Below are positions 60,406 to 64,000 of a DNA stretch of 64,000 nucleotides, in pieces (within the stretch, counting starts at the first letter, position 1; every line of letters begins with the position of its first letter). The position numbers and the translations under genes are program-made. Source of the stretch: Actinomycetota bacterium (GTDB lineage: Bacteria > Actinomycetota > Coriobacteriia > Anaerosomatales > UBA912); contig JAGXSC010000007.1 of assembly GCA_018334075.1 (NCBI GenBank), positions 364 through 64,363 of the forward strand. The letters are read 5' to 3'. Under the pieces are notes generated by a model that was not told the origin of the DNA, ran no database searches, and was given only the letters and a program-made list of their open reading frames with translations.

Positions 60406-60540
60406 TTATGCGCTAAGGACCTTCCGCCCTTTGCGCCGACGAGCCGCAAGAATGGCTCTGCCAGCCCTTGTGGACATCCTTGCCCTAAAACCATGCGTCT
60501 TGCTTCGCTTACGCTGGTTTGGTTGATATGTGCGTTTCAA
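60406..60540 (-). CDS. rpmH: 50S ribosomal protein L34 (TTG start; below the ORF-track cutoff)
   Basis: Translates to (M)[52 protein letters not shown] lies upstream. Confidence 0.9.
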
Positions 60541-60616
60541 CTGCGGTTTCCTCCATTCAGTGCCCAATCAAAGGGCAACAAGCCGTGACATTCTATATTT
60601 GCTTAGGCTCCGCTGT

Positions 60617-61095
60617 CAATCCACAAAGGCTCGGAGCTGAGCTTGCGAGCTTATTTCATTTCCTTCCGAAAAGAGGGAATGGCCCGTAGCGTATTTTTTT
60701 CATTTTCTGTGGATACTGTGGAAAACGCAGGATTTATGCTCATCGACATTGTGGATAACGATTCTCGACACCTTTTTGCCCTGTGCCCGTTTGCTAGAAT
60801 CCGCTCAGCACAGATTTACCGGTTAAACGTTTGGTTGCGCCTTGAAACCGCCCGATATGCGCGTTAGAAAATGATGACAGTTGCCCAAAACATTGCTTTC
60901 CGCAACTTTTCCACAGGCATTCTTTTTTTGCCTCTCTGAAAACCATTCTATCCACAGCCTTTTCGGCTACCTCGACGGGTTTTCCATTCTTTGACGGAAG
61001 CCCTATTTCTTTCGGCGACCGATTCCCGTAGGTTGGAGGTCATCTTTTCCCTCTCCTTCAACATGCCGCCACCGATTTTCCACAGATGTGGAAGG
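60617..61095. other. oriC part 1: the DnaA-box cluster upstream of dnaA
   Basis: 9-mers matching TTATCCACA or its complement: 60617-25 CAATCCACA, 60708-16 TGTGGATAC, 60717-25 TGTGGAAAA, 60750-58 TGTGGATAA (perfect), 60907-15 TTTTCCACA, 60948-56 CTATCCACA, 61076-84 TTTTCCACA, 61087-95 TGTGGAAGG. Confidence 0.8.
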
Positions 61096-61221
61096 GTTGT
61101 TGAAAACTACGGAAAATTAGGCGCACTGTGGCGACCTGAAGGGCTTCCATTCTAGTGCCGTTTTTAGTTTGGGCGCGGTTTTATTCATTATTGATGTCAG
61201 AACTACTGGAGGAGACGGGTC

Positions 61222-62088
61222 TTGCGTACGTTTTTCCCTAGCGGCTCGGAGGGCTTGAAACACCTGGAAACGCCGGCCTTGATCGACTACCCACACAAGC
61301 ACTTGTCCGATGACTCAGTAGCTTTGCAGGGTTTAGTGGCCGTTTACGGCTCTGTCGGCTCTGGCCCAACCATAGAAAAAATCGGGGGCCGCAACCCCTC
61401 ATCTTTTATTGAAACCCTCAGCTCGGCAGTATATTCAACTGCGAGGAACCTGGGAGGCCCGATTCCATATATCGCTATTCGTGAGGTTGTGGAAAACCTG
61501 ATACATGCTAACTTCGCGGAAGTAGTAGTATCAATACTCGATGCGGGCTGCACCCTGCGCATCGCCGATCAGGGACCGGGCATCGATAACAAGGAGAAGG
61601 CCGTGGCTCCCGGATATACCACTGCTACCAAAACAATGAAGCAGTATATTCGTGGTGTCGGGTGCGGGCTCTCTCTTGCTGTTGACCTTCTGGCTCAAAA
61701 GCAGTGCCGCTTGCAAATCGATGACAATCTTACTGGAGGCACTGTTGTCACAATATATAGCTCACAACCAACAGCTGAGGTGCCATTGATTAAAGCTGAT
61801 AGTGAGCCGGTTTTACTGAGCACGCCAATGGATCTCGGGTCGAAGCTCTCATACGATCAAAAAACTGTCCCTAAACTTTCGACTCGTTATAAGAGGGTTC
61901 TTTCCCTTGTTTTTGAGTTTGGAGAAGTTGGACCCACTTTGATCTCACGGGAGCTGTCGATTGGCCTTTCAACGGCCTATAGAGACCTGTCCTCTCTGGA
62001 ACAGGCGGGCCTACTAACCACAAAAGAAAATGGAAAGAGGGCTCTTACCGATCTAGGCCTAAATTATATCAATCATCTTTTTACATGA
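61222..62088 (+). CDS. GHKL/Bergerat-fold ATPase fused to a C-terminal winged-helix-like domain, immediately upstream of dnaA
   Basis: N-box EVVENLIHAN, G1 DQGPGID, G2 GVGCGLS, then the wHTH-like segment YKRVLSLVFEFGEVGPTLISRELSIGLSTAYRDLSSLEQAGLL. TTG start with GGAGGAG 7 nt upstream. The stop lies 19 nt before the dnaA ATG. Confidence 0.7.
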   Translation: MRTFFPSGSEGLKHLETPALIDYPHKHLSDDSVALQGLVAVYGSVGSGPTIEKIGGRNPSSFIETLSSAVYSTARNLGGPIPYIAIREVVENLIHANFAEVVVSILDAGCTLRIADQGPGIDNKEKAVAPGYTTATKTMKQYIRGVGCGLSLAVDLLAQKQCRLQIDDNLTGGTVVTIYSSQPTAEVPLIKADSEPVLLSTPMDLGSKLSYDQKTVPKLSTRYKRVLSLVFEFGEVGPTLISRELSIGLSTAYRDLSSLEQAGLLTTKENGKRALTDLGLNYINHLFT

Positions 62089-62107
62089 GATAAAGGATCC
62101 AACAGAT

Positions 62108-63508
62108 ATGCCGCCTGAAGCAACAAATGAACAGCTCTTGGAGGTTTGGTCTTCGGTTCTCGAAGTAATCCGAGCCGAACTAAATAAACCAACTATTAAA
62201 ACCTGGTTTGAGCACACCGTTCCTCTAACCATGATTGATGGAGAGCTTGTCGTTGGAGTTCAAAACGAATTTGCTAAGGACTGGCTTGAATCCCGATACT
62301 CCGGCCTTCTGAGCGCTGCTCTTTTGAAGGTGATGGGCGCTCCCGCCTCTATAAGTTTTGTTGTCTCTGCAAGTAATAAGACCACTGTCCTTCCTTTTTT
62401 GGAGGAAGCAACCACCGAAATTACTACTGAAATTCCTAAACTAGAACGGCGCGTTCTTGAGCGCGAAAAGGTCGATTCATTTAATCCAAAATATTCATTC
62501 GACTCTTTTGTAATTGGAGCCTCTAATCGTTTTGCGCATGCAGCAGCCCTGGCTGTCGGGGAGGCTCCTGGGCGAGCATATAACCCTTTATTTATATACG
62601 GCGGTGTTGGTTTAGGGAAAACTCACCTGTTGCACGCTATTGCTCAGTATGTAAAACAAAGCTTTCCTCATATGAAAGTAAAATATGTCACTTCAGAACA
62701 GTTTACTAATGACTTTATCAATTCAATTGCAAACAGAGATAAAAAACGTATAGAAGGATTTAGGCGGCAATATCGAACTAATGATGTTTTATTAATTGAT
62801 GATATACAGTTTTTAAAAGGCAAGGAGGGAACACAGGAAGAGTTCTTTCATACCTTTAATGCTCTTCAGCAATCAGGAAAACAGGTTGTTTTATCCTCAG
62901 ATCGCCCTCCGCGAGAAATTGCAATGCTTGAAGAGCGCCTCAGAAGTCGCTTTGAAATGGGCTTAATTACTGATATTCAGCCACCTGATTTAGAAACAAG
63001 AATTGCAATATTAAAAAGGAAAATCGAAACCGAGAGACTCGATATTCCATATGAGGTTCTTTTATTTATAGCCGACAGAGTATCCTCAAATATCAGAGAG
63101 CTCGAGGGGGCTTTAATCAGGGTTATCGCTTACGGATCCCTAACAAGACAACCTGTCACTATTGAGATATCCAATAAAGTTCTAAAAGATATATTCCCTG
63201 AAAAAAAGATTAAACCTATCCCTATATCCTCCATACAAAAAGAAGTGTGTAAGTATTTCTCCGTAAGCCGTTCTGAATTAATTAGTAGTAAAAGATCTCA
63301 AAACATTGTCTACCCACGCCAAATAGCAATGTATCTGGCCCGTGAACTAACAGATATCTCGCTACCAAGGATTGGAAATGAATTTGGTGGCAGAGATCAC
63401 ACCACCGTAATGCACGCAACAGCAAAAATTCAAAAAATGATCACTGCAGAGAGAGAGGTATACAACCAAATACAAGAATTGACTAATATTATAAGACAAA
63501 ATAATTAA
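62108..63508 (+). CDS. dnaA: Chromosomal replication initiator DnaA
   Basis: Full-length DnaA: Walker A GGVGLGKTHL, LLIDDIQF, sensor motifs, and a domain IV DNA-binding helix (GGRDHTTVMHA). Confidence 0.97.
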   Translation: MPPEATNEQLLEVWSSVLEVIRAELNKPTIKTWFEHTVPLTMIDGELVVGVQNEFAKDWLESRYSGLLSAALLKVMGAPASISFVVSASNKTTVLPFLEEATTEITTEIPKLERRVLEREKVDSFNPKYSFDSFVIGASNRFAHAAALAVGEAPGRAYNPLFIYGGVGLGKTHLLHAIAQYVKQSFPHMKVKYVTSEQFTNDFINSIANRDKKRIEGFRRQYRTNDVLLIDDIQFLKGKEGTQEEFFHTFNALQQSGKQVVLSSDRPPREIAMLEERLRSRFEMGLITDIQPPDLETRIAILKRKIETERLDIPYEVLLFIADRVSSNIRELEGALIRVIAYGSLTRQPVTIEISNKVLKDIFPEKKIKPIPISSIQKEVCKYFSVSRSELISSKRSQNIVYPRQIAMYLARELTDISLPRIGNEFGGRDHTTVMHATAKIQKMITAEREVYNQIQELTNIIRQNN

Positions 63509-63750
63509 AAACGAATACTTATTCATAAATTATTCAAGAGTTGAATAACCTGTTCTTTTTCTGTGGATATAATCTAATTACTGTTGATAGATTACTGTGA
63601 GGAATTTACTTTTCAACACCCATTCACAGTCTTTTAGTTGCCCTACCCACAGGCGAAACACAGTAGATAACCTTTTGTAATAAGGGGTTTTCAACAGAAG
63701 AGAAGGTCACTATTACTACTGAACTTAAAAATTTAAGAAAGGATCAGTAA
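63509..63750. other. oriC part 2: AT-rich dnaA-dnaN spacer with DnaA boxes, the likely unwinding side
   Basis: TGTGGATAT at 63562-70, CTACCCACA at 63643-51, and weaker boxes, flanked by very AT-rich runs (63509-63560 and 63700-63745). Confidence 0.6.
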
Positions 63751-64000
63751 ATGAAGGTAACGGTTTCTCGTGAGGAATTAGTCTCTTCTTTGGACTACGT
63801 AGCTAAGGGTCTGTCTTCAAGGTCGACCCTTCCGATCTTAGCCGGCCTTTGTATACATGCTGAAAAAAATGGCGAGATTTTTATTTCGTCAACAGACTTA
63901 GAGTTATCGGTAAAGTGTTCTTTTGCCGGGTTGGTAGAAGAGGGGGGGACTATAGTTGTCCCCGGTAGATTATTTATCAACATCATTAAAAACTTACCAA
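63751..64000 (+). CDS. dnaN: DNA polymerase III beta sliding clamp, N-terminal part. The gene runs off the 3' edge of the window.
   Basis: MKVTVSREELVSSLDYVAKGLSSRSTLPILAGLCIHAEKNG... is a typical DnaN N-terminus. AAAGGA lies before the ATG. Confidence 0.9.
   Translation, partial: MKVTVSREELVSSLDYVAKGLSSRSTLPILAGLCIHAEKNGEIFISSTDLELSVKCSFAGLVEEGGTIVVPGRLFINIIKNLP

Follow-up and report, generated by a model that had tools for sequence, protein, structure and literature searches.

What kind of gene can stand between a cluster of DnaA boxes and dnaA itself, and what would it do there? The question is raised by a 64,000-nucleotide stretch of contig JAGXSC010000007.1 (assembly GCA_018334075.1) from an Actinomycetota bacterium of the class Coriobacteriia, referred to below as the window. 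Directly ahead of dnaA, the window carries a gene for a 288-residue protein in which a GHKL-type ATP-binding domain is predicted to be joined to a C-terminal winged helix-turn-helix (wHTH). A first-pass annotation, made from the letters of the DNA alone, had placed this GHKL-wHTH gene inside the origin of replication, had suggested that it is co-transcribed with dnaA, and had proposed a role in origin or dnaA control. From the analysis presented here, the gene and dnaA are predicted to form a two-gene operon in which dnaA comes second and, with a probability of roughly 0.55, the product of the first gene would be an accessory factor that binds DNA under the control of ATP and acts in dnaA expression or initiation. 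The genomic context and the logic of the domains both point to origin or dnaA control as a candidate function. The features discussed below are collected in Table 1.

The open reading frame (ORF) is a genuine and strongly conserved gene. Its TTG start codon and GGAGGAG Shine-Dalgarno sequence, on which the first-pass annotation had relied, are backed by the homologues, which present M/L-[KR]-x-F-[FY] at the aligned position with a G-rich Shine-Dalgarno sequence before it; the 22 nt that precede the start are also conserved in an alignment of relatives. A word-indexed search returned 1554 relatives at E ≤ 1e-3, and the best 120 of these are mostly 240–350 residues long with one of 417 residues. 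Their database names are generic, among them 'ATP-binding protein', 'histidine kinase', 'hypothetical protein', anti-sigma regulatory factor and HTH/ArsR-type regulator. When 1.84 billion cluster representatives (clusters at 50% identity) were searched exhaustively with a profile, 391 clusters were found at E ≤ 1e-30, 546 at E ≤ 1e-10 and 5595 at E ≤ 1e-3, the last figure presumably representing generic HATPase_c proteins. The relatives form a discrete family of approximately 390 clusters at 50% identity that is without a name, and no family spanning the whole protein was found in curated Pfam, NCBIfam or PADLOC. It is highly improbable that the ORF is spurious or an inserted mobile or defense gene, and this explanation may be regarded as refuted: weak PADLOC matches that cover the wHTH alone are set against the number of relatives and clusters, invariant catalytic motifs, a fixed synteny and the absence of relatives from the viral collection that was searched. 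A defense-system or phage origin was rejected on two grounds, the restriction of the PADLOC matches to the wHTH and the absence of viral homologues.

The association of the family with dnaA is strict. A genome scan of one genome per species, covering 185,579 species, returned approximately 500 stretches that encode a relative. Eighty of these loci (L001–L080) were examined together with six further places, namely the window's own contigs, two members with long linkers and three close relatives. In 80/80 loci and in each of the six extra places, the gene is followed directly by dnaA in the same orientation, a total of 86/86 that leaves out the approximately 155 clusters in the tail between E values of 1e-10 and 1e-30. 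Upstream, most of the 80 loci have a divergent rpmH-rnpA-yidD-yidC-jag operon. Five loci (L049, L063, L065, L069 and L080), all gut metagenome-assembled genomes (MAGs) labeled Eggerthellaceae or Coriobacteriaceae, instead have the rpmH operon co-oriented downstream of dnaA, with dnaN upstream on the opposite strand. Since the rpmH operon and dnaN have swapped sides, the unit made of the box cluster, the gene and dnaA has been inverted as one block. According to record titles, the carriers are Coriobacteriia (Slackia, Gordonibacter and Raoultibacter among them), many unclassified Actinomycetota, Candidatus Hakubella, Candidatus Sysuimicrobiota/CSP1-3 and one Limnochordia MAG; by record label they span three phyla, one of which is represented by a single MAG.

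The converse was checked with 80 metagenomic dnaA loci of other lineages, whose DnaA proteins are 43–61% identical to that of the window. None of the 80 contained a GHKL-wHTH relative, although the sequence upstream of dnaA extends for 1 kb or more in 64 of them, and rpmH, where it was detected, usually lay a few hundred nucleotides upstream of dnaA. The first-pass annotation had raised the question of whether the gene is syntenic with dnaA and oriC or scattered elsewhere. The linkage held even where the rpmH operon and dnaN change sides, and homologues without a dnaA neighbor were encountered neither in the 86 places nor in the viral collection. Paralogues at other loci did not turn up among the sampled members.

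This adjacency bears on whether the protein could be a nucleoid protein, or a transcription factor that senses ATP or energy in a general way, with targets elsewhere, the dnaA promoter merely providing it with growth-coupled and origin-proximal expression. A sensor followed by a wHTH is the standard layout of a one-component regulator, the wHTH has matches of the Csa3/CasR type, and a specific operator shared by the family near dnaA was not found. However, strict adjacency across three phyla that survives an inversion would be unusual for a hitch-hiking regulator, and the lack of paralogues among the sampled members adds to the difficulty. Such a general role is judged unlikely.

The junction between the two genes suggests a shared transcript. 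For the downstream gene, Pfam DnaA_N, Bac_DnaA and Bac_DnaA_C match the identical dnaA copy in locus L081. In the 19 nt that separate the genes in the window, a consensus scan found neither a sigma-70-like promoter nor a terminator and a box scan found no DnaA box, in agreement with the first-pass reading of this gap. Over the 80 loci, a median of 14–19 nt separates the stop codon from the start of dnaA, and the distance is no more than 60 nt in 53/80 or 61/80 loci, according to the dnaA start that is assumed; in several loci the genes overlap by 4 or 8 nt. A short or overlapping junction is typical of translationally coupled cistrons and argues for both co-transcription and translational coupling in the clade of the window. 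The two genes are on the same strand, the junction is free of a terminator or promoter and the adjacency is conserved, all of which argues for the predicted dnaA operon. In gut Eggerthellaceae and in Slackia, the gap to dnaA extends to 70–270 nt or more and occasionally contains DnaA boxes, and dnaA may have its own promoter there. Co-transcription, as originally proposed, is thus supported for the clade of the window and may not hold for gut Eggerthellaceae and Slackia.

The domain composition of the protein is supported by profile matches, a structural model and residue conservation. Pfam HATPase_c (PF02518) matches residues 85–179 with a score of 34.1 bits, which exceeds the curated threshold of 26.4 (E = 4.1e-8), and it matches 28/28 relatives with a best E value of 4.6e-13. 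The N box (E88..N92..H95), the G1 box (D116-Q-G-P-G-I) and the G2 box (G145-V-G-C-G-L) follow in canonical order, with approximately 25 residues between G1 and G2. NCBIfam gave weak partial matches alone, to histidine kinases, SpoIIAB and MutL. For the wHTH, the Pfam matches of the window protein are below threshold (TrmB with E = 8.8e-4, IclR and FUR), and the 28 relatives provide firmer ones: TrmB in 16/28 (best E = 8e-9) and HVO_A0261_N in 19/28. Matches to Csa3/CasR-type wHTH domains were also obtained (cas_HTH, E = 7e-6; CasR, E = 1e-7), the Csa3-type cas_HTH match of the window protein again being below threshold.

AlphaFold2 was used to calculate a single-chain model from a 104-sequence alignment. 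The mean predicted local distance difference test score (pLDDT) was 83 and both domain cores scored above 90. A family-specific β-hairpin (residues 35–56) precedes the Bergerat fold (residues 59–180, pLDDT = 85–96). In the C-terminal domain, helices are modeled at residues 221–233, 238–245 and 249–261 and strands at residues 265–267 and 273–275, followed by a final helix that extends to residue 287 (pLDDT = 92–97). The three helices, the β-hairpin wing and the wHTH profile matches among the relatives are what is expected of a winged helix, and the profile match above a curated threshold with conserved N, G1 and G2 boxes is what is expected of a GHKL/Bergerat protein. Thus, a GHKL-type ATP-binding domain joined to a TrmB/Csa3-like wHTH is supported. 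The Bergerat motifs in canonical order and the C-terminal wHTH had been read directly from the translation by the first-pass annotation, and Pfam, AlphaFold2, Foldseek and the profile matches of the relatives agree with that reading.

Conservation of the ATP site was scored in 80 dnaA-linked proteins, the most divergent of which share 33% identity. Conservation of the N, G1 and G2 boxes is 95–100%, so the motifs on which the first-pass assignment depended are kept throughout. All three refutation tests of the first-pass annotation that lend themselves to computation were passed. Residues E88, E91, N92, H95, D116, G118, G120, G145, G147, G149 and G173 are 98–100% conserved; of these, N92, D116, G118, G120, G145, G147 and G149 reach 100% and E88 reaches 98%. 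Residues A40, Y42 and P49 of the family-specific hairpin are likewise 98–100% conserved. In the 104-sequence alignment, S250, T251, A252, R254, D255, L256, G271 and R273 of the recognition helix and wing are invariant. The disordered N-terminal arm begins with an M-[KR]-x-F-[FY] tip that is kept in the close clade only, and the idea that an M-K-x-F-F tip serves as a universal docking peptide was ruled out for this reason.

The linker between the two domains varies in length. In longer members, up to 491 residues, the profile match is split on either side of the linker region, and in some lineages the linker appears to be enlarged by up to approximately 200 residues (P0125, P0151, P0197, P0229 and others). 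It is rich in Pro, Gln and Ala in the gut-type members that were inspected. Several short database proteins (P0227, P0232, P0242 and P0258) appear to be frameshifted in the low-complexity linker and to have lost the wHTH.

A Foldseek search of the model against the PDB identified DIP2311 from Corynebacterium diphtheriae as the best match (PDB: 3LMM, 286 columns, E = 1.2e-6, template modeling (TM) score 0.41), followed by dozens of histidine-kinase catalytic domains. DIP2311 is a structural-genomics protein whose function is unknown (PMC8780604). No other Foldseek match covers both an ATP-binding-like part and, C-terminal to it as in the GHKL-wHTH protein, a helical part that resembles a DNA-binding domain; however, DIP2311 has 555 residues with a large extra N-terminal part, the identity is 15% and it has no known link to dnaA. 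The similarity does not extend over the full length of DIP2311, since the TM-score normalized to the target is 0.23 with the query half the length of the target. A profile search of PDB sequences matched KinB, HK853, CheA and MutL, and 3LMM was absent from it.

After 3LMM, the best sequence and fold matches are the catalytic (CA) domains of histidine kinases (KinB, PDB: 3D36; HK853; CpxA; PhoQ). They share the Bergerat fold, the order of the N, G1, F-like, G2 and G3 motifs and the spacing between G1 and G2. In contrast to histidine kinases, the GHKL-wHTH protein has no DHp/HisKA domain (no HisKA-type Pfam match at E ≤ 1), no phospho-accepting His helix and neither a sensor nor a membrane part, and a response-regulator gene is missing from the neighbors examined, whereas it does have a wHTH fusion and an N box with glutamates at positions N-4 and N-1. 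The model has a β-hairpin and one helix ahead of the N-box helix, not a helical hairpin, and, among the histidines, H95 alone is listed as conserved in the alignments of 80 and 104 sequences.

The N box, R-E88-V-V-E91-N92, aligns with K-E-L-V-E-N of MutL. This E-x-x-E-N arrangement, with a glutamate four residues before the asparagine, is held in common with the GHL ATPases (MutL, GyrB, topo VI-B and MORC), and the N-4 glutamate is the general base in GHL ATPases and SpoIIAB. The protein differs from GHL ATPases in having a short histidine-kinase-like lid, a HATPase_c_3 (PF13589) match at E = 0.061 and no transducer: beyond residue 180, the last of the ATPase domain, come the disordered linker and the wHTH, with no S5 fold. 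These features make it improbable that the protein is an origin organizer or segregation factor, working with ParAB or on origin DNA topology as an ATP-driven dimerizing clamp like MORC or MutL-like GHKL proteins. Besides the MutL-like N box, such a clamp would find a use for the N-terminal arm as a dimerization strap, by analogy with GyrB and MutL, and parA and parB are located 3–4 kb from the gene; nevertheless, the conserved linkage is to dnaA and not to parAB.

A resemblance to SpoIIAB and RsbW is also incomplete. HATPase_c_2 (PF13581) matches at E = 0.18, the anti-sigma F factor profile TIGR01925 matches with E = 2e-4 and 21.2 bits against a cut-off of 135, and STAS or sigma-factor genes were not found in the neighborhoods examined. 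A kinase or partner switch of this type, in which the Bergerat domain phosphorylates or sequesters a target such as DnaA while the wHTH just tethers it near the origin, would be consistent with the small stand-alone domain, with the N-4 glutamate that SpoIIAB also has, with the recording of some relatives as 'anti-sigma regulatory factor (Ser/Thr protein kinase)', and with a flexible tether of variable length that suits an enzyme anchored on DNA. Given the poor profile scores, the missing STAS and sigma-factor neighbors and the lack of a known phospho-acceptor partner, this mode of action is not considered likely.

Assignment to the histidine kinases, to SpoIIAB-type kinases or to the GHL ATPases each fails on at least one defining feature. 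Since the protein lacks both a DHp/HisKA domain and a transducer, and STAS, sigma-factor and response-regulator genes are missing from its neighborhood, it falls outside all three families, although it may work like parts of them. At the level of motifs it reads as a hybrid, with an N box like that of MutL and G1, F-like and G2 boxes like those of histidine kinases. The one-component regulators Csa3, CasR and TrmB provide a parallel for the other half of the protein, in that they have the same type of wHTH behind a nucleotide or ligand sensor; in the present case the sensor is a GHKL ATP-binding domain and not a CARF or sugar-binding domain.

The DNA upstream of the gene is rich in DnaA boxes, defined as matches to TTATCCACA with no more than one mismatch. 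The whole window contains 24 such matches while 7.7 ± 2.8 are expected, and 0/100 shuffles reached 24. In the related loci, box density is 4.98 per kb in the 800 nt upstream of the gene versus 0.21 in distant flanks (24-fold); downstream of dnaA it amounts to 2.66 per kb and within the genes themselves to 0.25 per kb, and boxes are absent from the short junctions. The eight boxes counted by the first-pass annotation at 60617–61095 are accounted for by six with at most one mismatch and two that retain a TCCACA core. Phylogenetic footprinting with three relatives, whose proteins are 61–81% identical, found near-perfect conservation of the DnaA boxes, a convergent box pair, an extended -10-like element, a block that is not a box and the ribosome-binding region. 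The sole conserved DNA found across the loci is the DnaA-box clusters.

Several of these elements were considered as binding sites for the GHKL-wHTH protein. The convergent pair TTTTCCACAGATGTGGAA belongs to a region in which three minus-strand box-like 9-mers, at 61087, 61098 and 61108, are spaced 10–11 nt apart. As an operator for a dimeric wHTH the pair was ruled out; it occurs in 42/81 loci with the gene but also in 17/69 dnaA loci that lack it, and it is absent from Eggerthellaceae. Since it is found upstream of dnaA where there is no GHKL-wHTH gene, the pair is a DnaA-box feature and not a marker of the protein. A TTWTCAACA 9-mer is approximately 50-fold enriched near canonical boxes (1.16 versus 0.023 per kb in loci L001–L080), and 9-mers with G or T at the same position are not enriched. 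It was rejected as a separate site because it replaces canonical half-sites in the palindrome and swaps with TTTTCCACA at the aligned position of locus L170, and is apparently a lineage-typical variant of the DnaA box. A one-mismatch box, TTTTCCACA, also lies on the minus strand within the ORF (61488–61496), where it coincides with the codons for V-V-E-N in the N box. Just 9/79 loci keep a box there when one mismatch is allowed, so this match is probably due to chance and was discarded as a functional site.

A sigma-70 consensus scan found no plus-strand promoter, and the extended -10-like element TGCTAGAAT came from the footprinting. It is identical in loci L169 and L170, and the aligned stretch of L171 begins downstream of it. 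The pattern TGnTA[GT]AAT occurs on the plus strand at the same distance in 18/79 loci and almost nowhere else in the 1.5 kb upstream. This element is the best candidate for the operon promoter and would produce a leader of approximately 415 nt containing several DnaA boxes. The conserved block TGCGCCTTGAAACCGCC could not be recovered from more distant loci with two mismatches allowed and is possibly an operator for another factor. No Rfam RNA element was identified in the 58–64 kb region of the window at E ≤ 0.1.

A second cluster of boxes occupies the spacer between dnaA and dnaN. Here, the boxes are invariant in four relatives, as are TTTTCAACA at 63688–63696, a 13-nt interval, the DnaA-trio-like CTATTACTACTG and an AT-rich tract. 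Boxes, DnaA-trios and AT-rich DNA constitute the basal unwinding system (BUS) of Bacillus subtilis and many other bacteria (PMC10721633). The BUS-like element at 63688–63739, just upstream of dnaN, is a likely candidate for the unwinding site, which the GHKL-wHTH gene probably does not adjoin. Since box clusters flank the gene and dnaA, the gene lies within what looks like a bipartite origin. The earlier placement of the gene inside the origin is correct in this bipartite sense, with boxes on both sides, and needs amending in that the likely unwinding site is downstream of dnaA. The bipartite oriC of B. subtilis also has box clusters on either side of dnaA and a BUS-like element before dnaN; the difference is the extra protein-coding gene between the left cluster and dnaA.

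Table 1. Features of the rpmH–dnaN region. Positions are those of the 64,000-nt window; residue numbers refer to the 288-residue GHKL-wHTH protein.
Feature	Position	Strand	Details
rpmH (ribosomal protein L34)	60406–60567	-	Heads divergent rpmH-rnpA-yidD-yidC-jag operon; ORF list, tblastn synteny
rpmH promoter-like TTGACA-18-TAGAAT	60590–60619	-	Promoter scan, 11/12 positions match
Upstream DnaA-box cluster	60617–61116	.	Box scan and enrichment in related loci; blocks invariant in four relatives
Boxes, at most one mismatch (start positions)	60708(-), 60717(-), 60750(-), 60907(+), 60948(+), 61076(+)	as given
Boxes, two mismatches	60617–60625(+), 61087–61095(-)	as given	TCCACA core intact
Extended -10-like TGCTAGAAT	60792–60800	+	Approximately 420 nt before start codon; candidate GHKL-dnaA operon promoter
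Conserved non-box block TGCGCCTTGAAACCGCC	60836–60852	.	17 nt; identical in four relatives save one C/T position
Convergent DnaA-box pair TTTTCCACAGATGTGGAA	61076–61094		2-bp spacer
Variant box TTTTCAACA	61098–61106	-
Variant box TTTTCCGTA	61108–61116	-
TTWTCAACA sites	61098–61106, 63610–63618, 63688–63696
Shine-Dalgarno GGAGGAG	61208–61214	+	7 nt ahead of TTG
GHKL-wHTH gene	61222–62088	+	288 residues, TTG start
Disordered N-terminal arm, residues 1–33	61222–61320	+	pLDDT 45–53
β-hairpin and Bergerat fold, residues 35–180	61324–61761	+	Pfam, pLDDT 85–96, conservation, Foldseek
N box, E88, E91, N92, H95	61483–61509	+
G1 box, D116-x-G-x-G	61567–61584	+	Followed by F-box-like P130-G-[FY]-T-T-A
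G2 box	61654–61671	+
G3 box	61738–61752	+
Disordered linker, residues 181–215	61762–61866	+	Variable length, pLDDT 48–65
Winged helix-turn-helix, residues 216–288	61867–62085	+	Profile matches, pLDDT 92–97, invariant residues
Recognition helix, S250-T-A-x-R-D-L	61969–62001	+
Wing, G271-K-R	62032–62040	+
GHKL-dnaA junction	62089–62107	+	19 nt; holds dnaA ribosome-binding site AAGGA
dnaA	62108–63508	+	466 residues, ATG at 62108; ORF list
dnaA-dnaN spacer, second box cluster	63509–63750	.	33% G+C
Spacer boxes	63562–63570(-), 63582–63590(-), 63610–63618(+), 63688–63696(+)	as given
DnaA-trio-like CTATTACTACTG	63710–63721		Lower strand 3'-GAT AAT GAT-5'
AT-rich tract	63722–63739		Directly after CTATTACTACTG

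Across the loci, the neighbors of the GHKL-wHTH gene are rnpA, rpmH, dnaA, dnaN, dciA and gyrB. Beyond the end of the window, as represented by locus L081 (8530–12467), dnaN is followed by a gene of the DciA/DUF721 family, gyrB, a 154-residue ORF without a Pfam match and gyrA; recF is not present between dnaN and gyrB. The region from dnaA onward forms an AT-rich island (window 62108–64000; L081: 6887–9990) with a G+C content of 40% in dnaA, 32–33% in the spacer, 41% in dnaN and 37% in the dciA-like gene. The G+C content is 56% for the whole window and 50% for the GHKL-wHTH gene, and the drop falls within the operon, between co-oriented genes.

How might an accessory factor of dnaA expression or initiation work from this position? 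A promoter embedded in the upstream DnaA-box cluster would drive the operon, and synthesis of the protein would then be tied both to the occupancy of the boxes by DnaA and to the production of DnaA. The winged helix would anchor the protein on DNA in the origin or in the dnaA control region. As the recognition helix is invariant across phyla, an equally conserved target is implied. Binding of ATP by the Bergerat domain would switch either self-association or contact with a partner, for which DnaA is the obvious candidate, and hydrolysis of ATP is probable because the N-4 glutamate E88 is conserved (98%). The outcome would be a tuning of dnaA transcription, of DnaA assembly at oriC, or of both. 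The present analysis shows the gene, its domains, the conservation of its ATP-site residues, its strict linkage to dnaA and the short junction; from these we infer the DNA target, the ATP dependence, any interaction with DnaA and whether the effect would be positive or negative. A tether of variable length fits self-association avidity driven by ATP, or a DNA-anchored domain that acts on a nearby protein such as DnaA, better than it fits rigid allostery.

A number of observations weigh against an accessory role of this kind. With a linker that is floppy and variable, the two domains are unlikely to be tightly coupled by allostery. The transducer that GHL ATPases use for hydrolysis is absent, so the protein may bind ATP without hydrolyzing it. 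Genes beside dnaA are not always replication genes, as rpmH and rnpA illustrate, and coupling within an operon is not universal since the junction is long in gut Eggerthellaceae. No conserved operator other than the DnaA boxes was found family-wide in the loci compared.

More narrowly, the protein could be an initiation regulator, that is, an ATP-switched GHKL protein co-translated with DnaA that docks on origin DNA and acts on DnaA loading or on the oligomerization of DnaA-ATP. In this tentative and somewhat doubtful scheme, it would have a role like that of YabA, SirA or Hda in Coriobacteriia (including gut Eggerthellaceae), basal Actinomycetota and Candidatus Sysuimicrobiota. The proposed role is one it would share with the established regulators of DnaA or oriC, such as YabA, SirA, Soj and Spo0A of Bacillus, Hda, SeqA and DiaA of E. 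coli, HobA, CtrA and MtrA, several of which are likewise restricted to certain lineages. To our knowledge, none of these has a GHKL domain and none is encoded by the upstream cistron of a dnaA operon.

Neither the domains themselves nor the concept of DnaA regulators confined to particular lineages is new. What appears to be undescribed is their combination in a conserved GHKL-wHTH gene that opens the dnaA operon; in line with the first-pass annotation, which had not recognized the arrangement, no description of the gene or the arrangement was found in the full-text literature searched, although most papers in subscription journals lie outside it and a prior description is possible. Many bacteria are reported to encode no identified DnaA regulator (PMC5720831).

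With DnaA regulators being lineage-specific and unknown for most bacterial phyla, the GHKL-wHTH gene provides a concrete candidate that is represented by approximately 390 clusters, and several of its carriers are cultured human-gut genera (Slackia and Gordonibacter). Even if the protein is a mere transcription factor, the annotation of the dnaA promoter and oriC changes in the carrier lineages, and origin predictors that assume only non-coding DNA between rpmH and dnaA would misplace elements. If the protein does act on initiation, the control of bacterial initiation would gain its first GHKL-fold member. Origin control would then be linked to an ATP-binding fold that is new to it, which would offer a handle on how replication is coupled to the energy state in these organisms.

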